DNA of 64,000 nt from Clostridia bacterium (GTDB lineage: Bacteria > Bacillota > Clostridia > Christensenellales > UBA1242), in the NCBI GenBank assembly GCA_017481235.1, contig JAFUPL010000030.1, forward strand, positions 578 through 64,577, in the 5' to 3' direction. The position numbers were made by a program, and so were the translations under genes. A model generated the notes under the pieces. The model did not search any database, had not been told where the DNA came from, and saw only the letters and a list, made by a program, of their open reading frames with translations. Below are positions 38,413-64,000 of the stretch, in pieces (the stretch's first letter is position 1; each line of letters opens with the position of its first letter).

Positions 38413-38432
38413 AAATAACTCCCTATGATTTT

Positions 38433-38461: not shown

Positions 38462-38468
38462 TACAAAC

Positions 38469-38495: not shown

Positions 38496-38499
38496 TTTA

Positions 38500-38575
38500 T
38501 GGAGCTTGTGGGCGGGATCGAACCGCCGACCTGTTGATTACGAATCAACTGCTCTGCCAACTGAGCCACACAAGC
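38500..38575 (-). tRNA. tRNA-Thr (anticodon CGT), CCA encoded
   Basis: Manual cloverleaf: acceptor GCTTGTG/CACAAGC, anticodon loop TTCGTAA, T-loop GGTTCGATCC. Confidence 0.88.
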
Positions 38576-38627
38576 ATATTTGCTAATAGACTTAATCTAT
38601 TAGCATTTAAAATTTACAAACAAGTTT

Positions 38628-38656
38628 ATTATAACATATATTTATAATTTTTACAA
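38628..38656 (-). promoter_or_regulatory. putative tRNA-Thr promoter (TTGTAA-17-TATAAT)
   Basis: Abuts the stop codon of the upstream gene. The leader contains the 10-bp hairpin TGCTAATAGA/TCTATTAGCA. Confidence 0.5.
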
Positions 38657-39964: not shown

Positions 39965-39973
39965 ATATATCTC

Positions 39974-40993
39974 CTATTGTTCTTTTTTCTTTAATGTAAT
40001 TATGTTCAACTTGTGATTTTCCTTATCGATTGCACTAATATATCCGCTAATGGTAGCACCCAACTTGTAAATATGGTGAGTAGCCGTATTAACATTTTCA
40101 CTATTTTCACGCGTAATTGCAAAAGCGGTTAAACCATTATCAAGTTTAATAAGCGCACCCGATGGAAAAATACGTTCAACCACTCCATTATGCTCATCAC
40201 CAAGATTAATATCATCAAAAATAGCATCTAATGGATTTTCTTTTAATTGTTTTAAACCTAAACTAATTTTAGCATTATCTATAGTTTTATCTAAAACCTT
40301 AAACTCATATTCCTTATTCTCTTCAATTACTTCGTTTAATGAATTAATATGTTCATAACTAGCGTCTTGAATATTAAGTTTACCTTTTAATCCATCATGA
40401 AGCATAATAATAGCATACTTATCCATAACTTTGATTGGCACGCCAGTTACTATATCATTTATGTTTATGTCAATACTTGAATAATCAACCGTTTTTTGAA
40501 GTAACTTTGTACTACAAACAATAGATTTGGTTAAACTATTAAGTTCAATAATTACTGCGTCAATTTCACGTTCTTTTAATTTTTCACGACTAATATAATC
40601 GTCTTTTGAACATTGCGAATAAGGCAAAAATACAGTAAATCCTAGTATTTCACCTTTAATACCTGCAGTAGTTAAATCCTTTACTACAAAACTAAAGGTA
40701 GAACCAACTTTTAAATCTTTTACTTTTTCGCGTTGCTCAAGTGCTTTGTTTACATTTTTAGCATCTAATACAATGCAACCATATTCATCTACCTTATCGG
40801 TTACCATTACCAATATTGCATCATCTTCCTTATATACATTTTCATCAAGTTCTTCTTTAGGCACTATTCCATCTTTCATGCCTCCAATATTTACAATTGC
40901 ACCACGCTTAGTAATCATAACAATTGTTCCAGTAATGATATCTCCCCTTTTATAATGGGTAAATTTAATATTAGCGTCCTTCATTGTTTGCAT
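39974..40993 (-). CDS. S1 RNA-binding domain protein (ribosomal protein S1 homolog, 4 S1 repeats)
   Basis: Repeated G(D/E)x(I/V)xG.V motifs about 70 aa apart. Lies after plsC, as in many Firmicutes. Confidence 0.78.
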   Translation of the reverse strand: MQTMKDANIKFTHYKRGDIITGTIVMITKRGAIVNIGGMKDGIVPKEELDENVYKEDDAILVMVTDKVDEYGCIVLDAKNVNKALEQREKVKDLKVGSTFSFVVKDLTTAGIKGEILGFTVFLPYSQCSKDDYISREKLKEREIDAVIIELNSLTKSIVCSTKLLQKTVDYSSIDININDIVTGVPIKVMDKYAIIMLHDGLKGKLNIQDASYEHINSLNEVIEENKEYEFKVLDKTIDNAKISLGLKQLKENPLDAIFDDINLGDEHNGVVERIFPSGALIKLDNGLTAFAITRENSENVNTATHHIYKLGATISGYISAIDKENHKLNIITLKKKEQ

Positions 40994-41591
40994 TTTTCTT
41001 TCCTCCAGTAATTAACAATTCGTTCATTTTTGATACTACTAATTTAGTAAACTCCTCGCTATATTCTTTATCCTTTGCCCTTGTCATATCGGGATAAATC
41101 AAATCACCTACAATAATTTTATTAAATCTTAAAAATCTAGGTTTTTTAAGTATCACTGTAGGCAAAACTGGTGTTCCCGTACGAAGCGCAAACAAGGAAA
41201 TACCCTCTTTTACGGTATTTTCGTCAATTTCGCCTGGTTTACTACGTGTTCCTTGTGGGCAAATACATACATGGCGTTTGCGATTGATTGCACTAAACAC
41301 TTTCTTTATCGCACCTAAATCTGCCTTGCTTCTATCCACTGGGATAACATCAAATTTTTTAAGAAACCAACCTAATACTTTATTTTTAAACAACTCCGCC
41401 TTGCCTATATATGTAAACTTTTTACGCAATTTAATTGCTAGTATTGGCAAATCAAAATTGCTCATATGATTACACGCAACTATTACATTTTGCTTTTTTG
41501 CTTTAGGCAAATGCTTTCTATTTATAACCCTTGTTGGAAAAAATATTGTTAAAAATGGAAACAATATTGCAAAACATATCCAAAATATCAT
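40971..41591 (-). CDS. plsC: 1-acyl-sn-glycerol-3-phosphate acyltransferase
   Basis: NHMSNFD (HX4D) and PQGTRS motifs with an N-terminal TM helix. Confidence 0.85.
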   Translation of the reverse strand: MIFWICFAILFPFLTIFFPTRVINRKHLPKAKKQNVIVACNHMSNFDLPILAIKLRKKFTYIGKAELFKNKVLGWFLKKFDVIPVDRSKADLGAIKKVFSAINRKRHVCICPQGTRSKPGEIDENTVKEGISLFALRTGTPVLPTVILKKPRFLRFNKIIVGDLIYPDMTRAKDKEYSEEFTKLVVSKMNELLITGGKKNANNEGR

Positions 41592-42814
41592 TTTAACCTC
41601 ACACTATCACCAACTACAAACCCGCTTGAAAACGCAATTTGCAAATTAAATCCGCCCGTCAAAGCATCTATATCTAAAACTTCGCCCGCAAAATACAAAT
41701 TAGAAACTAATTTACTTTCAAAGTTTTTAGGAGATACTTCCTTTAAATCTACGCCTCCACTGGTTATAATTGCCTTTTCTATATTATCTAACAAATTTAA
41801 AGATAAGTCAAATTTTTTTAACCCATTTATTAATATATTTCTATCATTTTTAGATAAATCACTTACTTTTTTGTCTTGTAAAGCATATTTTTGTATAAAA
41901 TATGGCACCAAACTACTAGGAAGTAGTGTTTTCAAATAAGTGGATAAATTCTTTTTGGCAAACACCTTAAACTCACGCAAAAATTTAGCGTCCAGTGTTT
42001 CAACGCTAAGTTTAGGTTTAAAATCAATATATAGTTTTGCCCTTGATAAATCTTGACGATTAATTTTACTTGAAATGGTTAATATTATTGGTCCACTAAC
42101 TCCGTTATTTGTAAATAACATTTCACCAAACTCTTTAGCAACTACTTTTCCATTAATCTCAACGCTTGCTTCTACAAATTTAAGTGACAATCCTTCAATA
42201 TCTTTTACATTTTCTTTAACAACTATCGGAACTAATGCAGGTTTAATTTCTATAATATTATGTCCAAACTTTTTGGCCCAAATATAACCATCTCCACTGC
42301 TTCCAGTTGACGAATACGACTTACCTCCGGTGGCAATAAGTACACTATATGATTGGTAAGTTGTTCCATTGATACACAATATTTTGAATATATCATTTTC
42401 TTTGAAAATATCTTTAACTTGTGTATTTAATACAATTTCCACGCCTGCATTGTTTAGCATTGACATAAGTGCATTTATTACATCGCTTGACTTGTCACTA
42501 ACTGGAAACACACGATTGCCATGTTCGGTTTTAAGCGGAACATATGATTCAAACATATCGATGGTATGTTGAGGTGTAAAGCGCCTTATTGCCCCGTTCA
42601 TAAAACGACTACCATTAATAGTGTTGGTTAAATGTGTTTCAATATCACTGTTGTTGGTTAAATTACATCTGCCCTTACCTGTAATATAAATCTTTTTACC
42701 TATCTTTTCATTTTTTTCAAGCAGCAAAACAGAAGCACCTCGTCTTGCCGCCTGAACTGCTGCCATACTTCCAGATGCTCCTGCTCCTATTATAATTAAA
42801 TCATAAATTCTCAT
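41588..42814 (-). CDS. HI0933/BaiN-family NAD(P)/FAD-dependent oxidoreductase
   Basis: IIGAGASG dinucleotide motif and the family hallmark GKGRCNLTN. Confidence 0.85.
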   Translation of the reverse strand: MRIYDLIIIGAGASGSMAAVQAARRGASVLLLEKNEKIGKKIYITGKGRCNLTNNSDIETHLTNTINGSRFMNGAIRRFTPQHTIDMFESYVPLKTEHGNRVFPVSDKSSDVINALMSMLNNAGVEIVLNTQVKDIFKENDIFKILCINGTTYQSYSVLIATGGKSYSSTGSSGDGYIWAKKFGHNIIEIKPALVPIVVKENVKDIEGLSLKFVEASVEINGKVVAKEFGEMLFTNNGVSGPIILTISSKINRQDLSRAKLYIDFKPKLSVETLDAKFLREFKVFAKKNLSTYLKTLLPSSLVPYFIQKYALQDKKVSDLSKNDRNILINGLKKFDLSLNLLDNIEKAIITSGGVDLKEVSPKNFESKLVSNLYFAGEVLDIDALTGGFNLQIAFSSGFVVGDSVRLK

Positions 42815-43521
42815 TTTTGCAAACTCTTTAAATACGCAATTTCTTTTGTTGTTAGTGCCTTATATTCCCCGCGTGAAAGACCTCCAAGTTTTATTTCACC
42901 AATGCTGACACGTTTTAAAAAGGCAACATTTTTACCCACTGCTTCAAACATCTTTTTAACTTGATGATTTTTACCTTCACTAATCACTATCTCTACACGA
43001 GTAAACTTTTCGTCCTTTTCTACAATTTGTGCACTACATGGTTGAGTAATATAACCACCAATATCTACACCCTTTGATATTTGTTTAATATCTTGAGGAG
43101 ATATTTCACCTTCAATAGATGCAATATATGTCTTTTTAACTAAGTTTTTAGGGTGAGTTAAAATGTTGGTTATATCGCCATCATTAGTTAATATCAATAA
43201 TCCTTCTGTATCATAATCCAAACGCCCTATTGGATAAACACGTTCTTGAACTTTACGCATAAGTTCTACAACTGTTTTGCGTCCCTTTTCATCACTGGCG
43301 GTGGTAACATATCCTTTTGGTTTGTGCAACTTATAATACACTCTACGAATATTTGGGCGTACTACCCTATTTTCAAACAACACAACATCTGTAGGTTTAA
43401 TATCTAAACCTAATTCACGTGTTACTTTGTTGTTTACTTTTACTTTACCTTGTAAAATTAGTTCGTCACATTTTCTGCGAGAAGCCACACCGCAATCTGC
43501 TAAATACTTATTAATTCTCAT
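42811..43521 (-). CDS. rluB: rRNA pseudouridine synthase B
   Basis: S4 domain (MRINKYLADCGVASRR) and catalytic GRLDYDTEGLLILTNDG. Confidence 0.9.
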   Translation of the reverse strand: MRINKYLADCGVASRRKCDELILQGKVKVNNKVTRELGLDIKPTDVVLFENRVVRPNIRRVYYKLHKPKGYVTTASDEKGRKTVVELMRKVQERVYPIGRLDYDTEGLLILTNDGDITNILTHPKNLVKKTYIASIEGEISPQDIKQISKGVDIGGYITQPCSAQIVEKDEKFTRVEIVISEGKNHQVKKMFEAVGKNVAFLKRVSIGEIKLGGLSRGEYKALTTKEIAYLKSLQK

Positions 43522-44664
43522 TTATTTTTCCCATTGTAATTTTATTGAATTGAAGATATCTTGATTAACAAGCACATCAATCTTATTTATTGTATACAAT
43601 TTTAAAGTTTTTTGCAAGTGATTATCGTAAAATACTGAAATTTCTCCAACTTCTTCGTTTTCTTCTACGTTTTTAGTTAACTCATATAACGAATAAACTA
43701 CTTTTAGTTTATTTCTTTCGCTATTCTTTATTGGAAAAATATAAGTTTCATCTGTATATAAATTAAGTTGTCCACGTTCACTGTCAATATAATATTCATT
43801 ATATATTGGTTCGTCTTTTATTGTTATTGGACTAAAATCATACTCGCTGTATGCGCTGTTAAGTAGTGTTACACTTTCTTCAAACATTGGTCCACAATTT
43901 AATACTACACACACTAAAGTTATTCCATTTCGTTTAATAGCGCTAACTAAACATCGTCCTGCGCGTGTTGTAAATCCTGTTTTAACCCCAATGCACCCAT
44001 CAAGACTGTTTAATAGTCTATTTTTATTAGTTAAATATCTTGCTTCGCTAATATTGGTTGCTGGGATTGTGTGGTGTTTAGTAGATACAATATCGGCAAA
44101 TATTGGATTATTTAATGCGTATGCGGTAACCATCGCCAAATCATATGCTGTGGTGTAATGGTCTGTTTCGTCTAATCCATGAGGGTTAGCAAAATGACTA
44201 TTTTTAGCACCCGCAGTTACACATAATTCATTCATCATGTCAACAAACTTTTCTTCAGTTCCACCTACATGGTACGCTAGTGCCATAGCACTATCATTGC
44301 CCGAACGTAACATTAAACCATATAGCAAATCTCTTACTGAAATTTGTTCGTCTTTACGTAAATATATCGAAGTGCCTTCTATCCCTATACTTTTGTTGTG
44401 GACTGTTATAATTTCGTCCAAATTATCACAATTTTGAATTACTGTTATTGCGGTTACAATTTTAGTAGTAGAAGCATTTGCAAGCATTTTATCCATATCT
44501 TTTTGATATAACACACGTTTAGAATCTTGCTCTAATACACACATTCCTTTTGCTGAGGTTGAAACTGCTTCAACGCTATTAATTGATACAGCATTAAACC
44601 CTACTCCCGTAAAAATCAAACAACATATCAAAATTGAAAGCATAATTTTAAACTTAATTTTCAT
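43522..44664 (-). CDS. D-alanyl-D-alanine carboxypeptidase (DacB/PBP5*-like)
   Basis: Signal peptide plus ASTTK (SxxK), SGND (SxN) and KTGFT (KTG) motifs. Confidence 0.88.
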   Translation of the reverse strand: MKIKFKIMLSILICCLIFTGVGFNAVSINSVEAVSTSAKGMCVLEQDSKRVLYQKDMDKMLANASTTKIVTAITVIQNCDNLDEIITVHNKSIGIEGTSIYLRKDEQISVRDLLYGLMLRSGNDSAMALAYHVGGTEEKFVDMMNELCVTAGAKNSHFANPHGLDETDHYTTAYDLAMVTAYALNNPIFADIVSTKHHTIPATNISEARYLTNKNRLLNSLDGCIGVKTGFTTRAGRCLVSAIKRNGITLVCVVLNCGPMFEESVTLLNSAYSEYDFSPITIKDEPIYNEYYIDSERGQLNLYTDETYIFPIKNSERNKLKVVYSLYELTKNVEENEEVGEISVFYDNHLQKTLKLYTINKIDVLVNQDIFNSIKLQWEK

Positions 44665-44665
44665 T

Positions 44666-45055
44666 TTATTTCTCCTTACTTTCTGCCATCTTTTTTAATA
44701 CTTCACTAGCATTTTTTAGTAATGTTAAATATGCTGAAGATTTATCGGCATGAACCATTTTAAACTTATTATCTTTAAGCACAAAAAATCCAATTGGCGA
44801 CACTGAGTATCCTCCACCAGTACCTCCAGCCATAGGATATTCGTCAAGATTTCGCTTTGAATTTAAATCGGAATACTCACCACCACCAGATACAAATCCA
44901 ACCGATACTTTTGAAATAGGAATAAGTAATGTGCCATCTGGCAATGTTACTGGTTCACCTATAACACAATTAACATCTACCATATTTCTAATACTTTCTA
45001 ATGACGAATCAATTAAACCTTTTATCTTATTTGTTTTCGTAACTTCTTGTTTCAT
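44666..45055 (-). CDS. ytfJ: sporulation protein YtfJ / GerW family
   Basis: IGEPVTLPDGTLLIPISKVSVGFVSGGGEY matches the conserved core of the family. Confidence 0.8.
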   Translation of the reverse strand: MKQEVTKTNKIKGLIDSSLESIRNMVDVNCVIGEPVTLPDGTLLIPISKVSVGFVSGGGEYSDLNSKRNLDEYPMAGGTGGGYSVSPIGFFVLKDNKFKMVHADKSSAYLTLLKNASEVLKKMAESKEK

Positions 45056-45596
45056 ACTCCACTCCCTTTAAACTCCAAATCGTATTAATTATTGAATAGA
45101 TAATATCAAATATACAAATGTTTATCTGCCCACCAATTTTTAAATTTAAACAATCTTGATTATATTTTGTCTCATTTGATATGAAAATATGTGCAGATTT
45201 TTTATTATGCAAAATTCGTGCATGCAAACATTTACTAGCAATATCAATTAAACTACTGCTCGTGGCGGTAACCATAGCATCATTATAGTATCCAACATCA
45301 CTTGCAAAATTAAGGGTTTGCAAAATTAGTCTAAAATAAATCTGTCTAACAAATTGTATTACAAATGCCACATTGAAATTCTTTGAGGTTAACTTTTCGC
45401 GTCTAGTTTTGTTATTGCGAGTAATATAAATGTAAGCACCCCTAAATCTAACTCTTAACTTAAAATTAATAAACCTAAATAATATTATTTGAACCGCACC
45501 ACTTAAATTTAACACATTTAATTTTAGGTTGAATTTTATTGGTATAGGAATTATTAACAAAAAAATAACTATCAATAATACAATTTGCCAAATCAT
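45027..45596 (-). CDS. DUF2953-like (YtfI-like) membrane protein
   Basis: N-terminal TM helix. Assigned mainly from its position directly upstream of ytfJ, as in Bacillus ytfI-ytfJ. Confidence 0.45.
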   Translation of the reverse strand: MIWQIVLLIVIFLLIIPIPIKFNLKLNVLNLSGAVQIILFRFINFKLRVRFRGAYIYITRNNKTRREKLTSKNFNVAFVIQFVRQIYFRLILQTLNFASDVGYYNDAMVTATSSSLIDIASKCLHARILHNKKSAHIFISNETKYNQDCLNLKIGGQINICIFDIIYSIINTIWSLKGVEYETRSYENK

Positions 45597-45718
45597 AAAT
45601 TTATGTTAAATAAAATTGATTTTTTTATGCATTTTTGCTATTTTATTACAAAATTTTTACTAAAATCTTAATATTTTTATTTATTTTAATAAAATTTTTA
45701 TTAAATATTATTTTTTAT

Positions 45719-45750
45719 AAAAAAATACAACCATTTAAGGTTGTATTTTT
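45719..45750. terminator. intrinsic terminator
   Basis: Stem ATACAACC/GGTTGTAT with A7 and T5 flanks. Confidence 0.75.
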
Positions 45751-45765
45751 CAAATGTTTTATAAA

Positions 45766-46374
45766 TTAAACAGTTTGTTGTTCTTCTTGCTCTTTCAAGT
45801 TTAAATATTCAATATATCTTTCCAAACACAAACCACCTAAGTCTTGCATTGCCTTAGCATGCTCAACACCAACATATCTAAAATGCCATGGTTCATATTT
45901 TTTCACACCAGTTATATGTTCTAAACCTTTTGGATATCTAAGTATAAAACCAAATTCCGTAAGCGCTTCATGAGTTGTTTTTATTATATCTTTATTTGAT
46001 AATTTAGCAATTAGTTTTGAAAGCATGTTGCTAGAACGAATTCTTACATCAATTGCAAGACCCAAATGGTGTTCGCTATATCCAGGAGTAGCAACCTCAT
46101 TTTGAGCATACTCTATTCCTTTTTCCTTAACAATTTTATCAAAATATTCTTGTTGTTCCTCAACAGTTCTTCCAGCAGAATTTAATGTTAATTTAACACC
46201 CTTTTTTAGCAACTTTTTTTGTAATTTTTTAAATGCTTCATAAGTTTCAGTTTCAATAAATTCCTTGTTTTCATTCATATCCTTGTTTACATCAATTTTA
46301 CTAAACTCAAACCCTTCCTTCATGTCATCACTAAACTTATTTTCAAAATTTACTAATCTTAAATATTTATCCAT
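45766..46374 (-). CDS. M15-family D-Ala-D-Ala carboxypeptidase (VanY-like)
   Basis: SAGRTVEEQ, SEHHLGLAIDV and EPWHFRYVG metal-site motifs. Confidence 0.85.
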   Translation of the reverse strand: MDKYLRLVNFENKFSDDMKEGFEFSKIDVNKDMNENKEFIETETYEAFKKLQKKLLKKGVKLTLNSAGRTVEEQQEYFDKIVKEKGIEYAQNEVATPGYSEHHLGLAIDVRIRSSNMLSKLIAKLSNKDIIKTTHEALTEFGFILRYPKGLEHITGVKKYEPWHFRYVGVEHAKAMQDLGGLCLERYIEYLNLKEQEEQQTV

Positions 46375-46449
46375 AAAAACTCCTTTTCTTTTGCTATGTA
46401 ATATACATTATAACTCAAATCAATACAAAAATCAATGATTAGAACAAAT

Positions 46450-46484
46450 AAAAATGCCTAAACAATAATATTTAAGCATTTTTT
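46450..46484 (-). terminator. putative terminator after smc
   Basis: Stem AAAATGC/GCATTTT extended by TAAA/TTTA. AT-rich. Confidence 0.5.
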
Positions 46485-46492
46485 ATTTAAGT

Positions 46493-49400
46493 TTATTTAT
46501 CTTTTTTACCTTGTTCGGTAACTTTTACCGCTTCGCTTAATTTTACTGACACTATCTTTGAAACACCTTTTTCTTGCATTGTAACACCAAATAACGAGTC
46601 AGCAAGTTCCATAGTAGGTTTACGGTGAGTAATAACAATAAATTGAGTATCTTGCGAAAATCTCTTTAAGTATCTAGCATATCTTTCAATATTGTTATCG
46701 TCAAGAGCCGCTTCAATTTCGTCTAGGAAACAGAATGGCATTGGACGAAGTTTTAATATTGCAAATAGTATTGCAATAGCGGTCATAGTTTTTTCTCCAC
46801 CACTCATTAGTGTAATGCTCTTCAATGCTTTACCTGGAGGGCAAGCATTAATTTCCACGCCCGCACATAATGGGTCTTCGTTTGGAAGCAATTCAAGATG
46901 AGCTTCCCCTCCACCAAATAGTTCTTTAAATACTTTTGTAAAGTTTGTATTTATCTTTTCAAACTCGGTATTAAACTTTTGCAACATTTCACTTGACAAG
47001 TCGGCAATAATTTTCATCAAGTCTGCTTCTGCCTTTTGAAGGTCTTGAACTTGAGTACTCATCTCTTCGTATCTAGCACCTTCAACCTTATACTCCTCAA
47101 TAGCATTAATGTTTATTGAACCTAAAGATGCAATTTGAGTTTTGATACGACTAATTTCAATCATGCCTTCCTTGATATCAAATTCAGTCTTTTTAAATGG
47201 CAAGCAATCATTATATGTCATCTCATATTCTTCGTAAATACGCTCTTGCATATTTTCAATATCAATATCAACCTTTTGAAGTTTGGCATCTTCTTGATAT
47301 ATTTTGCTTTGAAGACGAGACATTTCATCTTGAACTTCGCTCTTTTTGTCGCCAATTTCTTTTAATTCGTTCAACATTGACGCTTTAGATTGGTCAAAAG
47401 TATTAAGTCTAGCATTAAGTGAATCTAATTCCTCACCTATACCTGACGAATTAATTTCACGTAAAGTTTCTTGTTGAATATGTTTTGCTTGATTAAATAT
47501 TTCTTCTTGTTTTGAATATTCAATCTTTGCACGCTCAATATTTTCTGCGCTATCGGTTATTTTGAGTTTATAACGTTCGATTTCCAGTTCTAATGCCTTA
47601 ATTTTCTCTTCACTACTTGCAATTTTAATTTTGTAATCAGTAATTTGTGCATTATACTCATCACGCTTAAGTTTAAGTTCATCATACATTGACTTTGAAT
47701 TAGTTGAACTTTCACTCATTTGTTTTTGCGAACTTGTAATATCACTTTCCAAACTATCCACGCTATTAATTTTATCTTGAATTTCTTTCACAAATTGTTT
47801 AGCAACTGATAGTTGCGCTTCATATTGCTTAATACTACTACTTAATACATTTAATTTATCTTGTAGTGCTTGCAATTTGGATATTTTTGAAGCAAAATCA
47901 CTATTTAATTGTTGTAATTTGACCGCATTTTCCTCTCTAAACTGACGAAGATTTAAAACTTTGGTCATTATAGTTTGATTATTTTGTTGCAACTCGTGTA
48001 AATACTTGGTATTCTTTTCAATATTTTTGGTAAGTTCTTTAATTTCGTTTTCCTTTCCTATTACTGAAGTCTCATTTGACTTTTTGCTACCACCTGACAT
48101 TGAACCTTGAGGAGATAGCACATCACCTTCAAGTGTAACCATTTTAAACGAATATCCGCTATCACGAGCAATTTGTACTGCATTTTCAAGCGTGTCTACA
48201 ATTACGGTGCTACCTAACAAACTATCTATAACTTTTTTATACTCGCTAGGATAAGATATGATTTCGCTGGCAATTCCTAAACAACCTTTGCTATTTAAAA
48301 ATTTACGATCACTTTGCATTAGACTTCTTGGTTTAACCGCAGTCATTGGTAAGAATGTGGCACGACCAATTTTGGTTGACTTTAAATAATCAATCAAAAC
48401 TTTTGCATCTTCTTCATTTTTAGTAACAATATTTTGAACACTTGCCCCTAATGCAATTTCAATCGCCGTAGCATACGTGGATTTTACTTCAATAATATTG
48501 CCAATAACACCCTTGATTGCACTTGATAATTGCTTATTTGTTCCACTATCTTTCAATAATCTTTTAACCGCAATTTGATATCCTTCAAAATTTGCTTGCA
48601 AATTAACAAGTAGTTCTTTACGATTATTATCGTTGGCAATTGCTGACTTATATGCAAATATTTCATTATTTAAGTTGCTTAATTGAGTTTCCAATTCTTG
48701 CAAGTTACTTTTAGCACTAGTTAATTCGTCTTCAACTTTATCCTTTTGTTTACCTGTCAAATCCACATCACTTGAAAAATCTGATATTTGTTTTTCAAGT
48801 TGAATAAATTCTTGGTTTAAAGAACTTAACTTTTCACTGTCTGCTAATACATTTGCTTGCATTGCGTCACGTTTTGCAATCAATGCTGACATATTCGACT
48901 TAATATCTGTTAACTTTTCAAGATTATCTATATATGCACGATGACTTGCTTCCTTACTATCTTCATTAGCGGTAATTTTGTCAATAAGTTCTAAATATTC
49001 ATTAGATAACTTTTCGCTTTCAATTCTTAATGTTTTTAAAATCTTACTTTCGTCGTCTTTACTTTTAACTGCATTATCATGTATAAGTATTAATTGATTA
49101 TGCTCTAACTCTAAATTTTTAAGGTCACTTGCAACACGTTTGGTTTGCTCCTCAATGTGCGACATACGCTCATTTAAAAGATTGTTTTCACCTTGCTTCT
49201 TTTCGTATTGAACGGTTAAGTTAAGCACTTTATCATGTAGTTCGCTAATTGTCTTATCTACGCGATTAATTTCGTCCATATTCGCGTCATACTTAATTTG
49301 CAAATTATTGTATTCATTTTGCTTAATATTTAAGTGGTCTGTATACCCCTTTTTGCGAATATTAATTTCATCTTTAGCTACACTTGCATGCTCATATTGA

Positions 49401-50098
49401 TATATGTACGCATTAACTTCCAAATCTTTTAAAGTATCACGCAAAGCAAGTGACTTTTTAGCGTCTTCTGATTGACGCTTTAATGGTCCAAGTCGACGTT
49501 CAATTTCGGTCATAATATCATTAGTACGTGATAAATTATCGCGATATTTAGCCAACTCGTTTTCTGCTTCATTTTTACGTGCTTTAAATTTTGATATACC
49601 TGCTGCATCTTCAAATATTGTACGTCTATCTTCTGGTTTGGAAGATATAATTTGCTCTACTTTGCCTTGACCGATAATAGAATATCCTTCACGACCAACA
49701 CCACTATCATACAAAAGGTTTGTAATATCCTTTAAACGACATATTTTTTTGTTAATATAATACTCGCTTTCGCCTGAACGATAAAGTTTACGAGTAATCA
49801 TAACCTCATCATATTCGATATTAAACCACTTTTGGGTATTATCAAAAATAATCGAAACTTCACAATAAGATAGTTTTTTACGCTTTTCACTGCCAGCAAA
49901 AATAACGTCTTGCATGCTTTCGCCACGCAATTCCTTCTTACGTTGTTCACCTAATACCCAACGGATAGCATCTGCCACATTACTTTTACCACAACCATTA
50001 GGTCCAACAATGGCAGTAATACCTCCGTCAAAATTAATTTTAGTAGTATCCGCAAACGACTTAAATCCAGTCATTTCAATCTGCTTAAAAGTAATCAT
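46493..50098 (-). CDS. smc: chromosome segregation protein SMC
   Basis: Walker A GPNGCGKSN, about 900 aa of coiled coil with a hinge, C-terminal LMSGGEKT signature and Walker B FCFLDEIEAALD. Confidence 0.97.
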   Translation of the reverse strand: MITFKQIEMTGFKSFADTTKINFDGGITAIVGPNGCGKSNVADAIRWVLGEQRKKELRGESMQDVIFAGSEKRKKLSYCEVSIIFDNTQKWFNIEYDEVMITRKLYRSGESEYYINKKICRLKDITNLLYDSGVGREGYSIIGQGKVEQIISSKPEDRRTIFEDAAGISKFKARKNEAENELAKYRDNLSRTNDIMTEIERRLGPLKRQSEDAKKSLALRDTLKDLEVNAYIYQYEHASVAKDEINIRKKGYTDHLNIKQNEYNNLQIKYDANMDEINRVDKTISELHDKVLNLTVQYEKKQGENNLLNERMSHIEEQTKRVASDLKNLELEHNQLILIHDNAVKSKDDESKILKTLRIESEKLSNEYLELIDKITANEDSKEASHRAYIDNLEKLTDIKSNMSALIAKRDAMQANVLADSEKLSSLNQEFIQLEKQISDFSSDVDLTGKQKDKVEDELTSAKSNLQELETQLSNLNNEIFAYKSAIANDNNRKELLVNLQANFEGYQIAVKRLLKDSGTNKQLSSAIKGVIGNIIEVKSTYATAIEIALGASVQNIVTKNEEDAKVLIDYLKSTKIGRATFLPMTAVKPRSLMQSDRKFLNSKGCLGIASEIISYPSEYKKVIDSLLGSTVIVDTLENAVQIARDSGYSFKMVTLEGDVLSPQGSMSGGSKKSNETSVIGKENEIKELTKNIEKNTKYLHELQQNNQTIMTKVLNLRQFREENAVKLQQLNSDFASKISKLQALQDKLNVLSSSIKQYEAQLSVAKQFVKEIQDKINSVDSLESDITSSQKQMSESSTNSKSMYDELKLKRDEYNAQITDYKIKIASSEEKIKALELEIERYKLKITDSAENIERAKIEYSKQEEIFNQAKHIQQETLREINSSGIGEELDSLNARLNTFDQSKASMLNELKEIGDKKSEVQDEMSRLQSKIYQEDAKLQKVDIDIENMQERIYEEYEMTYNDCLPFKKTEFDIKEGMIEISRIKTQIASLGSININAIEEYKVEGARYEEMSTQVQDLQKAEADLMKIIADLSSEMLQKFNTEFEKINTNFTKVFKELFGGGEAHLELLPNEDPLCAGVEINACPPGKALKSITLMSGGEKTMTAIAILFAILKLRPMPFCFLDEIEAALDDNNIERYARYLKRFSQDTQFIVITHRKPTMELADSLFGVTMQEKGVSKIVSVKLSEAVKVTEQGKKDK

Positions 50099-50234
50099 AA
50101 CTCCCCTTTTATCTTTTGCGAAATTAAACTTTAAAAAATTTATTAACCTTAGTATAGCAAATTTATTTTATTTCTCCAAACAAAATAGCAAATTTTACTA
50201 AATTTATACTTGTATTTGCCTATAAAAAAGTTAA

Positions 50235-50254
50235 AAGACTAGATTTTTCTAGTC

Positions 50255-50256
<2 letters not shown>
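50235..50256 (-). terminator. ligA intrinsic terminator (overlaps stop codon)
   Basis: Stem AAGACTAGA/TCTAGTCTT, then TTTTAACTTTTTT on the minus strand. Confidence 0.75.
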
Positions 50257-52225
<1,969 letters not shown>

Positions 52226-52229
52226 TTAT

Positions 52230-52291
52230 GGCAATGATGTCTATTATTGCCAATTATTCATTTTTCATTATTCATTCTTCATTAATCATTA
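52230..52291. repeat. H-element copy 2: hairpin GGCAAT..ATTGCC + 5 heptamers with TCA at exact 7-nt spacing
   Basis: TCA starts at 52058+200n? no: C of TCA at 52259, 52266, 52273, 52280, 52287. The 18-mer ATTATTCATTCTTCATTA (52267-52284) is identical to 63651-63668 and overlaps the pcrA stop codon. Confidence 0.8.
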
Positions 52292-54672
52292 ACGAAAGTT
52301 ATCGGTGCATAATCTAATGTTAAAACTTGATTGCCTACTGTAGCAAAATTTATAGTAACACATCTATTACTTTCATGCGTACTAGTATCCACAATAACAC
52401 CTTCACCAAACTTAACATGCATTACCTTTGCGCCTACTTTAACCTTAGATGTATCAATGCTTTGCTTTGATACTCCCTTGGATAGTCCCGCAATGTTTAA
52501 CCCTCCAACTCTAGCATTTCCTCCACCTAAAGCATTAGTTTTATAATTTAAATTACTATTAAAATTGCTTGATGACTTAGTATAACTAGAACTATTATTA
52601 GGATTACCATATGCACTACTAGTATAACCTTTATATTGAGGATTATTTTTTACTATATACTTATTATTTGAATAATCCCCATAGTCACTGTTGTAACTTC
52701 CCTGTTCGCTTCTTGCTGTGTATTTACCATATGGACTAGAATATTCATTACCATAATATCCACCATAACCAAACGCTTGGTCCTTAACCATATCAATTTC
52801 TCGCAAAAACCTACTCTTAATTGCTATATCGCGTTTACCATACATAAAGCGCGAACTACTACTTGTTAAATACAAATCCTTACGTGCTCTAGTTATTGCT
52901 ACATACATAAGTCTTCGCTCTTCCTCTTGTTCATCAAGTTCAGCACGATTTACTGGGAATATTTTTTCTTCCAATCCAGATATAAATACAGTGTCAAACT
53001 CTAGTCCTTTAGCGGCGTGCACTGTAGCAATTATAACTCCGTTTTTGGTGCTTTCAGTATCTATATCGCTAATAAGTGTTACGCTTTCAAGATATTCATT
53101 TAGCGTTGCATTTGGATTTGCTTCCTCATAATCCTTAATTGATTTAATAAGTGAAGTCACATTGATATACCTATCTAATTCAGTTTCTTCCTTTTGATTA
53201 AAACTTTGCAAAATATGTGCTTCATCTACAATGTAAGTTATAAGTTCATACAATCCAACTTCACTTGCTTTTTTGTCAATATCTTGAAGTAATTGTTTTA
53301 AAGGTTGAAGTTTATTACGTAGTGCTGGTTTAATATCTTCAATATCACAATTTAGTATAATATCTTTCATACTACACTTGCGCATATCGGCAAGTTCTTT
53401 TAACCTAGTAATACTAGTATCGCCAATTCCGCGTTTAGGGAAATTGATAAGTCGACTAAAACTAGTAGTATCATTTGGATTAACTATTGAAATTAAGTAT
53501 GATAAAGTGCTTTTTATTTCAGCACGTTCATAGAACTTTACACCATTATAAATTTTATGCGGTATATTATAGGCAAGCAATTTTTCTTCAAAAGGACGCG
53601 TCAAAGCATTAAGACGTAAAAGTATTGCAATATTATTAAGGTCAATACCCTGTGCTCTTTGTTGAATTATATGGCGAACCACATAATCCGCTTCATCTTG
53701 TTCGTCGCGTGCACAATAATAACTCACGTCACTACCTTGGTCATTAGTGGTATACAATTTTTTAGATAACCTATTCTTGTTGTTTTCAATTAGTTTGTTT
53801 GCTTTATCAAGAATTGCTTTGGTGCTACGATAATTTTGTTCAAGTTTAAATACTTTTACATTTTTAAAGTCTTTTGAAAACTGGAATATATTGCCGACAT
53901 TAGCACCACGCCAACTATATATAGATTGGTCCTCATCACCTACAATAAACACGTTTTGATGTTTAGCACCAAGTATCTTTACAATTTCGTATTGCAATTT
54001 ATTAGTATCTTGAAATTCGTCAATATGAATATATTGAAAACGGTCTTGCAAACTAGACCTTACATCTTCATTTTTAACTAACAACTTATAAAAATTAATC
54101 AATAGGTCATCAAAATCCATAGCATTATTTTTAAGTAGTTCGTTTTGATAAGCAAAATAACCACGTCGTACCATATCAATACCCTTAGTGTGCTTGTTAA
54201 TTTCGCAATACTCATCAATATGAATGTTATCGTTTTTAATTACACTGATTGCATGTTTAACGCGCGACTTAGTTTCGTCATCTGTTACACCCAAATCGGC
54301 AAACACTTGCTTAAACACTTTTGTTTGGTCGCTATCGGTGTATATGCTAAAATTAGGTTGATATCCTTCCAATACTGATTGATACTTACGTAGCATTCGT
54401 ACACAAAAACTATGAAACGTCGCCACTAATACAAGTGATGCATCTTCACGAATTTTGCATACACGCTCTTTCATTTCATTAGTTGCCTTATTGGTAAAAG
54501 TAATTGCTAATATCCTATAAGGGTCAACGTGAAGTTCGGTTAGAAGATATGCTATACGATATGTAAGCACTCTTGTTTTGCCACTGCCAGCACCAGCAGA
54601 AACCAAAACAGGACCTTCAGTATTAAGCACTGCCTGTAATTGTTCATTATTTAGTAAACTTGAATAATCCAT
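52282..54672 (-). CDS. pcrA: ATP-dependent DNA helicase PcrA
   Basis: UvrD-family motifs (GAGSGKT, DEFQDT, YRS, VHAAKGLEF, VAITRA). A Tyr/Gly/Ser/Asn-rich linker precedes a C-terminal Tudor-like KVGAKVMHVKFGEGVIV domain. Confidence 0.95.
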   Translation of the reverse strand: MDYSSLLNNEQLQAVLNTEGPVLVSAGAGSGKTRVLTYRIAYLLTELHVDPYRILAITFTNKATNEMKERVCKIREDASLVLVATFHSFCVRMLRKYQSVLEGYQPNFSIYTDSDQTKVFKQVFADLGVTDDETKSRVKHAISVIKNDNIHIDEYCEINKHTKGIDMVRRGYFAYQNELLKNNAMDFDDLLINFYKLLVKNEDVRSSLQDRFQYIHIDEFQDTNKLQYEIVKILGAKHQNVFIVGDEDQSIYSWRGANVGNIFQFSKDFKNVKVFKLEQNYRSTKAILDKANKLIENNKNRLSKKLYTTNDQGSDVSYYCARDEQDEADYVVRHIIQQRAQGIDLNNIAILLRLNALTRPFEEKLLAYNIPHKIYNGVKFYERAEIKSTLSYLISIVNPNDTTSFSRLINFPKRGIGDTSITRLKELADMRKCSMKDIILNCDIEDIKPALRNKLQPLKQLLQDIDKKASEVGLYELITYIVDEAHILQSFNQKEETELDRYINVTSLIKSIKDYEEANPNATLNEYLESVTLISDIDTESTKNGVIIATVHAAKGLEFDTVFISGLEEKIFPVNRAELDEQEEERRLMYVAITRARKDLYLTSSSSRFMYGKRDIAIKSRFLREIDMVKDQAFGYGGYYGNEYSSPYGKYTARSEQGSYNSDYGDYSNNKYIVKNNPQYKGYTSSAYGNPNNSSSYTKSSSNFNSNLNYKTNALGGGNARVGGLNIAGLSKGVSKQSIDTSKVKVGAKVMHVKFGEGVIVDTSTHESNRCVTINFATVGNQVLTLDYAPITFVND

Positions 54673-54692
54673 AATAACTCCATTTAAATGTC

Positions 54693-54721
54693 ATTATATC
54701 ACAAACTTAAAATTTTAACAA
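54693..54721 (-). promoter_or_regulatory. putative pcrA promoter (TTGTTA-17-TGaTATAAT)
   Basis: Extended -10 with 17-nt spacing, immediately downstream of the terminator at 54723-54746. Confidence 0.5.
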
Positions 54722-54722
54722 A

Positions 54723-54746
54723 TAAAAAAGGGCGATTTGCCCTTTA
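54723..54746 (-). terminator. intrinsic terminator
   Basis: Stem AAAGGGC/GCCCTTT followed by T6 on the minus strand. Confidence 0.8.
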
Positions 54747-54781
54747 ATAAAAATAAAATTAATTTTTTTATAAAAATATAC

Positions 54782-54895
54782 GTCATATCGAGCAGAGTGC
54801 CTACGCACGTAGTCGAGTGTATCTCCACATTTGTAAATATATTATATTTGCTAATGATTGAAATTTGTCACTTATTATCACTCGGTCAGAACGAC
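54782..54895. mobile_element. MITE-like element copy D (same terminal repeats as copy C)
   Basis: Left end GTCATATCGAGCAGAG. The reverse complement of the right end, GTCGTTCTGACCGAG, compares with copy C GTCATTCCGACTGAG. Internal AGATACACTC and TTGCTAAT words are shared with C. ATACGT is present on both flanks. Confidence 0.6.
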
Positions 54896-54920
54896 AATCC
54901 ATACGTTAAATATTAGTAAT

Positions 54921-54947
54921 AAAAAAAGATGCAACTATAATTGCACC
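54921..54947 (-). terminator. rpsU intrinsic terminator
   Basis: Stem GATGCAA/TTGCACC (one mismatch) followed by T7 on the minus strand. Confidence 0.65.
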
Positions 54948-54954
54948 TTAATTT

Positions 54955-55143
54955 TTAATATCTACTTTTTTTCATAGCGCGCTTTCTTGCTGCTTCGCTC
55001 TTTTTCTTTTTTCTAACGCTAGGCTTTTCGTATTGTTCACGTTTACGTAAATCGCCAATGATACCATCTTTTTGACATTTACGTTTAAACCGCTTTAACG
55101 CACTTTCAACAGATTCATTTTCGCCAACTTTAATTGTGCTCAT
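54955..55143 (-). CDS. rpsU: 30S ribosomal protein S21
   Basis: 62 aa basic protein with [19 protein letters not shown] and [17 protein letters not shown], typical of S21. Confidence 0.95.
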
Positions 55144-55263
55144 CTAACTCACCACCTTTCGTTTTACAAATTCTTTTATATTTTACACATCTAAAACACT
55201 TTTGTCAATAGATTTTTAAACATTTTTAAAAAAATTTAACAATTTATGCAAAAATTTTTAAAA

Positions 55264-55977
55264 TTACTTAATCATTTCCTTAAAATTTTGTAATATTTTG
55301 TTTTCGATACGTGATATTTGAACTTGGGATACACCTAAACTTGAAGCAATCTCGCTTTGCGTCTTGTCAAGATAATAACGCATAATAATCACACGTTTTT
55401 CACGTGCAGGAAGAGCATTTATCATATCTCTCAGCACAATTTTATCTACTAATTTGTCGGGCGAAAAATTATCTTGCGTGCGTTCGGCAAGACTGTCGTC
55501 TTCATCATCAAATTTATCATCAATTGATATTAATTGTGTAGAAGCTTCTAATGTCAACACCACATCTTGTGGGTCAATATTAAACTCATTTGATATTTGA
55601 TCAATACTGGGTTCAACCCCAATTTTAGACTGATACTCGGTAATATAGTTTTTAATAAGTATTGCATTATGTTTGATACTTCGTGACACTTTCACGCTTC
55701 CATCATCACGCAAAAACCGCTTAACCTCACCCGCAATCATAGGTACGGCATACGTGCTAAATTTAACATTATATTCAGCACTAAAATTATTAATTGCTTT
55801 TACAAACCCCATGCACCCTAATTGATAAAGGTCTTCGTCCTCTACTCCCTTGTTTTTATATCTACGTATAACACTTTTGATAAGTGGAGAATTTTCTGTG
55901 ATAAGTATTTCTTTTGCATTATCGTTACCGCTTTGCGCTAACTTTAATAAATTTAAAGTTTCTTCATTAGATAGCAT
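55264..55977 (-). CDS. sigF: sporulation sigma factor F
   Basis: Sigma-70 regions 2-4 (DLYQLGCMGFVKAI, region 4 TQSEIASSLGVSQVQISRIE). The ATG is 1 nt after the spoIIAB stop. Confidence 0.92.
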   Translation of the reverse strand: MLSNEETLNLLKLAQSGNDNAKEILITENSPLIKSVIRRYKNKGVEDEDLYQLGCMGFVKAINNFSAEYNVKFSTYAVPMIAGEVKRFLRDDGSVKVSRSIKHNAILIKNYITEYQSKIGVEPSIDQISNEFNIDPQDVVLTLEASTQLISIDDKFDDEDDSLAERTQDNFSPDKLVDKIVLRDMINALPAREKRVIIMRYYLDKTQSEIASSLGVSQVQISRIENKILQNFKEMIK

Positions 55978-55978
55978 G

Positions 55979-56410
55979 CTATACCGCCTGTTTGTTTTCT
56001 ATTCGCTTTGTCATCTCCACAATCAAACCTTTAGCACCATTGTGCTTTACAACCAAACTATCCATAAAACTATCCATAACCGTAAATCCCATACCACTGC
56101 GTTCCTCATCGGGCTTTGTAGTATAAAATGGTGTTAATGCCTCTTCTATATTTTCAATTCCCACGCCACTATCTTTAATGGAAATATGTATTTGGTCTTG
56201 TTCGCGACTAAGTAGCATAGTAATTTCCCCTACTTTGTTTGGATATGCATGCACCACGCAATTAGTAACCGCTTCACTTACGGCGGTTTTGATATCTCCA
56301 ATTTCATCTAGTGTTGGATTTAGTTGAAGGCAAAATGCCGATACACAAGTACGCGCAAACGCCTCATTTTCTGGTAATGATTTAAACTTTATTTCTATTT
56401 GATTTTTCAT
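55979..56410 (-). CDS. spoIIAB: anti-sigma F factor / SpoIIAA kinase SpoIIAB
   Basis: GHKL kinase motifs (EAVTNCVVHAY, DSGVGI, GMGFTVM). Start set at the ATG at 56410 (MKNQIEIKF), preceded by AGGAGATTAT; the ORF track begins at a GTG at 56446. Confidence 0.92.
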   Translation of the reverse strand: MKNQIEIKFKSLPENEAFARTCVSAFCLQLNPTLDEIGDIKTAVSEAVTNCVVHAYPNKVGEITMLLSREQDQIHISIKDSGVGIENIEEALTPFYTTKPDEERSGMGFTVMDSFMDSLVVKHNGAKGLIVEMTKRIENKQAV

Positions 56411-56446
56411 ATAATCTCCTTTTTTATTTTTTGGCATATCCGCCAC

Positions 56447-56637
56447 CTTAATCCTTTGTTATAAATGTATAATAAAACATTATATTATTAGGCATCTTAA
56501 GTATGAAACTTGCACCTATATAGCGTGACTGGCGATATGAACAATATAATACGATAACTTCCTCAATGCAAACTTGTTTGCGCTTCATAGTACACTAAGT
56601 CCTACTTCATATCTTCATAAGCGAAACGTCTTCATAT
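56447..56637. repeat. multi-hairpin element, copy E (family A/B/E), inside the spoIIA operon
   Basis: Positions 56491-56552 are colinear with copy A. Positions 56613-56637 are the reverse complement of the copy B 25-mer (24/25). There are four CTTCATA words. The element starts directly after the spoIIAA stop codon. Confidence 0.8.
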
Positions 56638-56949
56638 CTAACTAATCTTTGGCATAATATCATAAAGTCCTGCCATTTGAAATATCTTTTCTGCTTGACG
56701 TGATGGATTTATAATGTATATAGGTATGTTTCTGCTTTGCAACTTTTTGTATCGTCCCAACATCACACCTATACCCGTGCTATCCATAAAATCCAGTTGC
56801 GACAAATCAACTATAACCTTATTAAATCCCTTTTCCGTTTCAATTACTTGATCTAAATGATTTCTAACATAAGGCGCATTTGCTTCGTCTAACTCTCCTA
56901 TTAGCAAAACATATAACGAATTATTGTGTACTTTTGTTTTAATTTGCAT
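56638..56949 (-). CDS. spoIIAA: anti-anti-sigma F factor SpoIIAA (STAS domain)
   Basis: 103 aa STAS fold with the phosphorylatable Ser context DFMDSTGIGV. GGAGGGG RBS. Confidence 0.9.
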   Translation of the reverse strand: MQIKTKVHNNSLYVLLIGELDEANAPYVRNHLDQVIETEKGFNKVIVDLSQLDFMDSTGIGVMLGRYKKLQSRNIPIYIINPSRQAEKIFQMAGLYDIMPKIS

Positions 56950-56989: not shown

Positions 56990-57026
56990 AAAAAAAAGAG
57001 CAAGTCTTGTCTAAAAACTTACTCTT
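56990..57026 (-). terminator. intrinsic terminator upstream of spoIIAA
   Basis: Stem AGAGTAAGT/ACTTGCTCT (one G-U pair on the minus-strand RNA) followed by T8. Confidence 0.75.
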
Positions 57027-57042
57027 TAAGTCGAATTTTAAG

Positions 57043-61773: not shown

Positions 61774-61801
61774 ATTATATAATATATCTATAAAAAGTCA
61801 A
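61774..61801 (-). promoter_or_regulatory. putative promoter (TTGACT-16-TATAAT)
   Basis: Read on the minus strand, 13 nt downstream of H-element copy 4. Confidence 0.45.
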
Positions 61802-61813
61802 TACCAAATTTTT

Positions 61814-61893
61814 AACTTTTCACTCTTCATTTTTCATTTCAAAAATAATCCAACTAAGTGAAAAATGAAAAATAAAAGTGAAAAACGAAGAGT
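61814..61893. repeat. H-element copy 4: opposed heptamer arrays forming a long hairpin
   Basis: The left arm (TTTTCAC TCTTCAT TTTTCAT) pairs with the right arm (GTGAAAA ATGAAAA .. GTGAAAA ACGAAGA). The 16-position stem spans 61822-61837 and 61878-61893 with one mismatch and one G-U pair. Confidence 0.75.
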
Positions 61894-61898
61894 ATAAA

Positions 61899-61930
61899 CA
61901 AAAATCCCTATCTTACGATAAGGATTATTT
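61899..61930 (-). terminator. terminator of the six-tRNA operon
   Basis: Stem ATCCTTATC/GATAGGGAT (one mismatch) followed by TTTTTGTTT on the minus strand. Confidence 0.7.
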
Positions 61931-63630: not shown

Positions 63631-63681
63631 ATAATGCGAAAGCATCCTTTATTATTCATTCTTCATTATTCACTTATCATT
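63631..63681. repeat. H-element copy 3: ATAATGCGAAAGC module + 4 heptamers
   Basis: The 13-mer is identical to 23839-23851, the 14-mer ATTCATTCTTCATT (63654-63667) is identical to copies 1 and 2, and TCA recurs at exact 7-nt spacing. The element ends 6 nt from the spoIVA stop codon. Confidence 0.8.
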
Positions 63682-63686
63682 GCATA

Positions 63687-64000
63687 TTACAATAATATGC
63701 ATAATAGTCCGCCCTTGCCCTCATTTACTATACGAGATAAAGTTTTGCGTAACTTGTTTTGCAAAGCAACTGGCATAGCGGTTAATTTGTTGTTTAGATC
63801 TTCGTTGACTAAACTCTCTAAACTTTTACCAAACATATTTGTTTGCCATATACCTTTAGGGTTATTTTCAAACTCTTTTAATAGATACTGTGCCATTTCT
63901 TCACTTTGTTGCACTCCACCCATAATTGGACTCACTTCGGTTTGAACATTAACTTTCATAATATGCAAACTTGGAGCATTTGCCTTTAATTTAACACCAC
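63687..64000 (-). CDS. spoIVA: stage IV sporulation protein A, C-terminal fragment (gene continues beyond window)
   Basis: MFGKSLESLVNEDLNNKLTAMP and the terminal IVNEGKGGLLCILL resemble the conserved SpoIVA C-terminus. The frame is open to the window edge. Confidence 0.75.
   Translation of the reverse strand, partial: GVKLKANAPSLHIMKVNVQTEVSPIMGGVQQSEEMAQYLLKEFENNPKGIWQTNMFGKSLESLVNEDLNNKLTAMPVALQNKLRKTLSRIVNEGKGGLLCILL

Follow-up and report, generated by a model that had tools for sequence, protein, structure and literature searches.

The stretch analysed here, called the window below, comprises 64,000 nucleotides (nt) of contig JAFUPL010000030.1 (assembly GCA_017481235.1) from a Clostridia bacterium, and this report deals with the non-coding spacer that separates spoIIAA from spoIIAB in its spoIIA operon. 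The operon encodes a STAS antagonist, a HATPase_c anti-sigma kinase and a SigF-type sigma factor, in this order and on one strand (Table 1). The spoIIAA product scores 92.3 bits against the NCBIfam model TIGR00377, over its cutoff, and 93.7 bits against TIGR02886, under the equivalog cutoff, and a DSTG motif with a phosphorylatable serine can be read from its sequence. The spoIIAB product matches TIGR01925 (spIIAB) over the cutoff (182.6 bits), with the profile beginning at residue 3 of 143, and the best matches of the sigF product are the SigF/SigG family models in NCBIfam. When the genes were compared with those of relatives, the ratio of nonsynonymous to synonymous divergence (dN/dS) was 0.02-0.08 over the three genes (0.03-0.06 for spoIIAA and 0.02-0.08 for spoIIAB). 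Judged from these ratios, strong purifying selection acts on each of the three genes and the operon is functional. The synonymous divergence (dS) between the window and every relative is ~1 or more, so unconstrained DNA is expected to be scrambled at such a distance.

The window DNA falls in the Candidatus Onthoplasma group (Christensenellales), which are gut Clostridia with small genomes. A published survey assigns Onthoplasma to GTDB family UBA1242, gives a genome size of 0.8-0.9 Mb and a coding density of ~91%, and describes the sporulation genes as unexpected (PMC12306168). Judged by titles and abstracts, none of the three papers that mention Onthoplasma deals with repeats.

Generally, gene order, the tight spoIIAB-sigF junction and the strong purifying selection agree with the canonical spoIIA operons of Bacillus subtilis and Clostridium, whereas the spoIIAA-spoIIAB junction does not. 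To place it, SpoIIAB-anchored searches were run, which returned 80 genomic and 80 metagenomic loci (these and the other comparison sequences are designated below by L numbers). Among 128 Clostridia and Bacilli loci that do not belong to the Onthoplasma group, the spoIIAA-spoIIAB gap never exceeds 63 nt and its median is 15 nt; within the group the gaps are 10, 30, 33, 64, 73, 78, 95, 104, 113, 120, 123, 145, 150, 160, 192, 194, 195, 227, 241 and 287 nt. In L032 and the outgroup locus L007 the gap is 10 nt and consists of stop-AGGAGATAAT-ATG only, and distant relatives have 5-25 nt. The same 227-nt spacer is shared by five independent assemblies encoding identical SigF, which indicates that it is real and fixed in the species rather than an assembly artefact. 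When metagenome contigs were scanned with SpoIIAB, the best match was 65% identical, so no close relative turned up there. The earlier note had placed 227 nt between the spoIIAA stop and the ATG at 56410, had put the sigF start 1 nt after the spoIIAB stop, and had taken tightly spaced cistrons as the rule elsewhere; all three descriptions hold. It had also left room for a long spacer common to the relatives. The junction comparison instead shows, at the level of sequence, a true insertion relative to an ancestral tight junction of about 10 nt.

The length of the gap depends on where spoIIAB begins. The sequence upstream of ATG 56410 is AAAAAAGGAGATTAT, with the true Shine-Dalgarno sequence AAGGAG at 56421..56416. 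The ATG is conserved, and the spIIAB model starts close behind it. An in-frame extension to ATG 56437 or GTG 56446 is stopped, frame-shifted or without a start codon in most relatives, so the upstream GTG, which the earlier note had named as the competing start, is unsupported and its preferred ATG stands. The first 30 nt of spoIIAB (56381-56410; columns 70-99 of alignment A1) are almost invariant across lineages, synonymous sites included. Set against the gene-wide dS, this suggests constraint on the translation-initiation region.

Reading from the spoIIAA stop codon, the spacer consists of a T-module core, two more TATGAAG words, a hairpin, a degenerate module 2, ~82 nt of filler and a leader next to spoIIAB. 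On the plus strand, the words appear as CTTCATA at 56583-89, 56605-11, 56613-19 and 56630-36; the window holds 14 CTTCATA words on that strand, and their sole other cluster is at 30288/30305. The filler holds an inverted word (GATATGAA, plus strand, 56534-41) whose complement, TTCATATC, occurs twice, at 56606-13 and 56631-38. By eye, module 2 of the spacer agrees with heptad copy D of the window (AAGGATGCTTTCGCATTATATTGTT, 63631-63688) at ~21 of 30 positions and is closer to AAAGGAAGTTATCGCATTATATTAC of L186. Tandem Repeats Finder reported no array in 56300-56750. No terminator-like site (GC-rich stem followed by a U-run) was found in 56411-56637, the nearest lying at 57027..56995, upstream of spoIIAA. 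Thus the four words, the GCAAA/TTTGC hairpin, the complementary 8-mers and the lack of a terminator-like T-run, all described in the earlier note, could be located or reproduced.

Table 1. Features of the spoIIA operon, its spacer and the dispersed repeat copies in the window
Feature	Position	Strand	Remarks
spoIIAA	56949..56638	minus	103 aa, STAS-domain anti-sigma-F antagonist; stop TAG 56640..56638
spoIIAA-spoIIAB non-coding spacer	56411..56637	minus	227 nt; second-longest junction found, behind L190 (287 nt)
T-module core ATATGAAGACGTTTCGCTTATGAAG	56637..56613	minus	two TATGAAG words around a collapsed hairpin position; directly after stop codon
Two further TATGAAG words	56611..56605, 56589..56583	minus	15 nt of unique sequence between them
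Family hairpin GCAAA-CAAG-TTTGC (GCAAACAAGTTTGC)	56581..56568	minus	
Degenerate module 2 GAGGAAGTTATCGTATTATATTGTT	56564..56540	minus	by-eye match to copy D and L186
Species-specific AT-rich filler	56539..56458	minus	no counterpart in any relative
Conserved proximal leader	56457..56411	minus	AAAGGATT-AAGGTGGCGGA, GGC/GCC hairpin, A-rich tract, Shine-Dalgarno AAGGAG
spoIIAB	56410..55979	minus	143 aa, anti-sigma F factor; ATG 56410, AAGGAGATTAT just ahead
sigF	55977..55264	minus	237 aa; 1 nt past spoIIAB stop
Second T unit ATATGAAGACGTTTCACTTATGAAG-TC-GTGGCATTGCCAC-TTATTATGGAAAAATT	30287..30345	plus	between two minus-strand genes, so inverted to transcription
Heptad copy A + module 2 (AAGGACGCTTTCGCATTAT)	23839..23896	minus	directly after stop codon
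Heptad copy B (AATGATT AATGAAG AATGAAT AATGAAA AATGAAT) + hairpin TTGGCAAT..ATTGCCA	52230..52290	minus	overlaps pcrA stop codon, ends at ligA ribosome-binding site
Heptad copy C + inverted partner array	61788..61905	minus	downstream of tRNA cluster
Heptad copy D + module 2	63631..63688	minus	begins 6 nt past stop codon

The modules of the spacer recur elsewhere. Its first 25 nt are found again at 30287-30311 of the window (24 of 25 identical, E = 3e-6), where the hairpin GTGGCATTGCCAC follows, and the unit at 30289 shares ~41 of 46 nt with a unit of another species (L195, 2882.., minus) despite saturated synonymous divergence. The census of repeats covered the 64-kb window together with ~100 kb of DNA from related genomes. 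With at most 4 mismatches allowed, the T core ATGAAGACGTTTCGCTTATGAAG is found 6 times in Onthoplasma-group DNA (162 kb) and not once in the control loci (1.06 Mb); a scan of viral contigs for it gave 0 matches. Counted as dispersed copies, there are six sites in the window, three in the 20 kb of L195 and none in ~1 Mb of controls. The spacers of other lineages each hold a different mixture of modules between the spoIIAA stop and AAGGTGGC. TATGAAR words at 8- or 17-nt spacing are present in the window, L181, L183, L184, L005, L186 and L188, units of ATGATATG plus hairpin in L178 and L187, and AATGAAN heptad arrays in L179, L182, L005, L185-L188 and L191; further junction modules are units of a word plus a 5-bp hairpin and the 'module 2' motif GGAnGyTnTCGCATTATATTAC. 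Turnover can be seen even among contigs with the same protein, as one SpoIIAA (P0014) occurs on contigs with gaps of 123, 192 and 241 nt.

For the hairpin, units were chosen by their flanks alone (TGAAnnC..5+loop+5..TTAT), which gave 13 units in repeat contexts. In these, 95.4% of the cells are paired and 4 of the 5 pairs have changed on both sides, with stems of the types GTGGC/GCCAC, GTGAC/GTCAC, GCAAC/GTTGC and GCAAA/TTTGC. The units score 0.63 for covariation and the shuffles 0.33, and none of the 500 shuffles equalled the observed value. As controls, slid frames were 25-65% paired, and background coding matches to the flanks pair at 1-3 of 5 positions. The compensatory changes mark GCAAA/TTTGC, which also stands directly after the stop codon in L178 and L187, as a family hairpin under structural constraint, so the hairpin reported in the earlier note gains support.

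The heptad arrays of the window (23839-23896, 52252-52283, 61788-61845 and 63631-63688) all lie on the coding strand, and 3 of the 4 start 0-6 nt after a stop codon. Runs of at least three TGAA at 7-nt spacing occur four times in the window, with 0.02 expected. In L195, which is syntenic with the window over its 20 kb, T units are found in the ThiF-thioredoxin spacer and at the pcrA-ligA junction. The presence of T units or heptads at other junctions argues that turnover behind stop codons is general, and that the spoIIA junction is one colonised site.

Several observations were made on these arrays besides. They contain no C, have TGA in all three frames and reach the ribosome-binding site of the next gene. 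An exact 22-mer (AATGAAGAATGAATARTGAAAA) is shared with 11 IMG/VR viral contigs (~45% GC), where it too stands immediately ahead of a ribosome-binding site; in one of these viral contigs (L169) the array is expanded, so the copy number varies. The array observations cover the window copies and L167-L177. A literature search on the heptad sequence returned nothing relevant. Copy C and its partner array AGTGAAAAATGAAAAATAAAAGTGAAAAACG (61846-61905) could fold into one long hairpin; a cluster of six tRNAs (61939-62553) with its own terminator-like hairpin lies just upstream. At the pcrA-ligA junction, L195 has T-type hairpin units (14314-14421) and the window a heptad array (52216-52283); PcrA has 796 aa in the window and 783 aa in L195, and the last two codons and stop of the window copy, AAT GAT TAA, resemble the first heptads, so the repeat may have remodelled the C-terminus.

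The part of the spacer next to spoIIAB behaves differently from the rest. In alignment A1 the leader has the plan ..ACAAAGGATT-AAGGTGGCGGA-(3-6 nt)-GCC-A-rich-AAGGAGATTAT-ATG, and all inserted DNA sits exactly between the spoIIAA stop codon and this leader (AAGGTGGC). L002 (33 nt) and L193 (30 nt) contain little beyond it. AAGGTGGCGGA lies at 56449..56439 in the window, and a small GGC/GCC hairpin pairs 56444..42 with 56435..33; the bases between GGC and GCC vary freely. By our own count, the core GGTGGC is kept in ~17 of the 21 distinct expanded junctions, at dS of ~1 or more. AAGGTGGC is retained in most lineages, and what follows is ATG, TTG, GTG or no start codon, in variable frame, so that a Shine-Dalgarno-like sequence is conserved without a conserved start codon. 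The copy of AGGTGGCGGA in the leader is the sole non-coding one in the window, all others lying inside long open reading frames (ORFs). The stretch that would be relevant to pairing with the 3' end of 16S rRNA is AAGGUGGCGGA; no rRNA gene lies within the window.

As to where the leader came from, a weak but recurrent similarity links its second half (ATGCCAAAAAATA) to the spoIIAA 3' end (ATGCCAAAGATTA, ATGCCnAAA) in several lineages (P = 0.02-0.09 per lineage). The third base of the proline codon is matched between leader and spoIIAA 3' end in 6 of 15 lineages, with ~4.4 expected, which makes an origin by duplication possible and leaves it unproven. An old tandem duplication of the junction, with AAGGTGG as the duplicated Shine-Dalgarno sequence, would be compatible with these data. 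A 16-nt exact match to the leader (TTAAGGTGGCGGATAT) is located inside ligA (51489-51504, minus), where it codes for ..FKVADI.. (BLAST E 0.003); the identity is probably a coincidence, and the ligA stretch could also be the source of the leader. By eye, the spacings in the leader do not fit a sigma-H, sigma-54 or sigma-F/G promoter.

Taking these results together, we consider it fairly probable that the gap is a lineage-specific non-coding mosaic which accreted inside a still-functional spoIIAA-spoIIAB-sigF operon, and we read the spacer not as a dedicated folded RNA with a regulatory role but as a rapidly changing patchwork of small hairpin repeats of a dispersed family. The junction comparison shows the additions to be small modules, namely TATGAAG words, hairpin units (5 bp) between conserved flanks, the GGAnGyTnTCGCATTATATT motif and AATGAAN heptad arrays. 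It likewise shows these modules to have been gained, lost, duplicated and inverted quickly enough that contigs with identical SpoIIAA differ. An early ancestor of the Onthoplasma group would have gained a second, short leader, (A)AGGTGGCGGA..GCC..A-rich, ahead of the true Shine-Dalgarno sequence (cf. L002 and L193), and modules would then have come in upstream of this leader. Since there is no terminator in the gap, the three genes would still be transcribed as one unit. The insert would abolish tight translational coupling, so that translation of spoIIAB would rely on the strong Shine-Dalgarno sequence of this gene. The hairpin units may act like repetitive extragenic palindromic (REP) sequences and bacterial interspersed mosaic elements (BIME), as selfish or near-neutral DNA that could serve, within mRNA, as decay barriers or processing landmarks. 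The conserved AAGGTGGCGGA is probably an auxiliary ribosome-binding site of the standby or stabilizing Shine-Dalgarno (STAB-SD) kind, which would keep spoIIAB-sigF expressed whatever inserts upstream.

Some points weigh against this account. The neighbour-joining tree behind the junction history was built from 157 amino-acid columns and is weakly resolved. L190, whose 287-nt spacer (1813-2099) is extremely AT-rich, unrelated to the others and without the AAGGTGGCGGA leader, keeps intact genes, which means that at least one lineage can do without the leader, and the leader could be conserved for an unrecognised reason at the DNA level. No transposase or other mobilising enzyme was identified in the 64 kb of the window and ~100 kb of relatives. 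An nhmmer profile of heptad copies A-D has no match to the spacer at E <= 100, and membership of the spacer in the family is therefore carried by the T core, the hairpin and module 2. The earlier note had called the spacer copy E of a repeat family; that it is built from family material stands (the 24/25 copy and the T core census), and as the heptad profile misses it, it is better described as a related mosaic than as a clean copy.

A more far-reaching proposal is that the T, hairpin and heptad modules form an undescribed mobile repeat class which targets sites behind stop codons in the reduced-genome UBA1242 Clostridia, is mobilised as single-stranded hairpins, and has been co-opted together with AAGGTGGCGGA to uncouple or tune SpoIIAA:SpoIIAB:sigma-F through mRNA stability or ribosome relay. 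We regard it as unlikely; were it true, the turnover of the spacer would be a fast-evolving dial on sporulation commitment.

An internal promoter that makes spoIIAB-sigF a separate transcription unit is improbable to a similar degree. The candidate is a sigma-A-type site (TTCATA 56507..56502, 17 nt, TATAAT 56484..56479) on the correct strand ~70 nt upstream of the ATG, which agrees at 10 of 12 positions and has a perfect -10 hexamer. However, such sites occur in the region at chance density (13 against 10.3 +/- 3.0 expected), this one is located in the species-specific filler and is absent from all relatives, no conserved -35/-10 pair is visible by eye upstream of the leader in alignment A1, and no terminator follows spoIIAA.

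We also weighed whether the spacer is a dedicated folded cis-regulatory RNA that sets the translation of spoIIAA against spoIIAB or the processing of their mRNA, which we hold to be quite unlikely. The minimum-free-energy and centroid folds do contain the 8-bp long-range stem and the 5-bp hairpin, and the spacers of L181 (z = -1.93) and L178 (z = -2.18) fold somewhat better than shuffles. Nevertheless, the window sequence folds no better than composition-matched shuffles (z = +0.60 for 251 nt covering the whole spacer; 0.06 sense and -0.12 antisense for the repeat-rich half), and neither does the spacer of L005 (z = -0.17). In Rfam, only tRNAs pass the gathering thresholds in the window, and for 56300-56750 at E <= 10 the best hits (E 2.3-5.9) are without exception to families that are eukaryotic or otherwise irrelevant. 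Each lineage has its own sequence, length and module order, and contigs with identical SpoIIAA differ in them as well, which argues against a precisely tuned regulatory RNA, and L032 and L193 manage with 10-30 nt. The description of the spacer as structured in the earlier note is therefore not borne out, and of its long-range stem the complementary words are present but not conserved.

Least probable, and very doubtful in our view, is a translated spacer, either as an extended SpoIIAB or as a chain of mini-ORFs (AUGA/UAAUG junctions plus a 46-codon ORF at 56588..56448) that relays ribosomes from spoIIAA to spoIIAB: gene callers do pick ATG 56437 (152 aa), and the best ORF chain of the window spacer leaves no more than 13 nt untranslated in one piece, where shuffles have a median of 58 (P = 0.003; L185, L187 and L188 likewise at P <= 0.02, so 4 of 21 spacers are significant in all), but the extension is broken in most relatives as described above, tiling is lacking both in L181 and L183 (P = 0.95 for these two) and in L005 (P = 0.79) though L005 is nearly identical to L188, the 46-aa ORF has neither a family match nor homologous sequence in relatives, and the shuffling destroys AUGA-containing words, which biases the test towards tiling.

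Returning to the mosaic, we compared its modules with known repeat systems and class the family, by analogy, as REP/BIME/BOX-like. REP sequences transcribed in mRNA form decay barriers and, near a stop codon, reduce the output of the upstream gene. Like REP/BIME, the units here are short hairpins with conserved flanks, with pairing kept by compensatory change; they occur single, in tandem or in mosaics and in both orientations, are sited in transcribed DNA between genes, close behind stop codons, and differ from one close relative to the next. Unlike REP/BIME, they have no sequence similarity to those elements, their stems are 5 bp, the flanks are purine-rich TATGAAG words, the host is a reduced-genome Clostridium, and heptad arrays of microsatellite-like character belong to the family. 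The RAYT/Y1 (REP-associated tyrosine) transposase of REP/BIME was not identified in the part of the genome covered. The BOX elements of Streptococcus pneumoniae (boxA-(boxB)n-boxC) are likewise modular, with variable internal units, intergenic, often within operons and variable among strains, but their modules are ~45-60 nt with a long stem, whereas those here are 7-25 nt and the whole spacer has no excess folding.

The Correia/NEMIS (Neisseria miniature insertion sequence) elements and other miniature inverted-repeat transposable elements (MITEs) are also small non-autonomous repeats whose presence at orthologous sites varies, and MITEs are co-transcribed with their neighbours. MITEs, however, end in inverted repeats and are flanked by target-site duplications. 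The spacer is not bounded by such repeats, and the inverted repeats in 56380-56680 are internal, 7-18 nt long and AT-rich. A clear target-site duplication was not found either; when the insertion of L005 is compared with L184, the only possible one is a TA(A/G) repeat. The family thus does not qualify as MITEs, and its likeness to them is looser than to REP/BIME and BOX. For AAGGTGGCGGA, a possible analogue is the STAB-SD of the Bacillus thuringiensis cryIIIA leader, which is also a conserved Shine-Dalgarno-like sequence off the real start and without a conserved start codon; STAB-SD belongs to a 5' leader, whereas AAGGTGGCGGA is intercistronic and ~27-35 nt from the real start.

Upstream of the operon, 2-4 tandem paralogous ORFs of ~150 aa each are located between cysS and spoIIAA, and their copy number varies among relatives (window 57043-58570, minus, with a further ORF upstream; L081 946-2935; L195 8850-9905). 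These paralogues share 30% mutual identity and a common DIETGK(Y/H)YE motif, and match no Pfam or NCBIfam family.

The sigma-F switch is set by the relative amounts of SpoIIAA, SpoIIAB and sigma-F. The first two cistrons of the operon nearly touch in almost all spore formers, and the lineage of ~0.9 Mb described here tolerates 30-287 nt of changing repeat DNA between them. Its junction variants, from 10 to 287 nt, would offer a natural series on how much translational coupling weighs in the sigma-F switch, and AAGGTGGCGGA gives one short constrained non-coding element that is directly testable. For the Onthoplasma group as a whole, the finding would put a dispersed family of modular hairpin repeats into a type of genome in which such elements are commonly expected to be almost absent.

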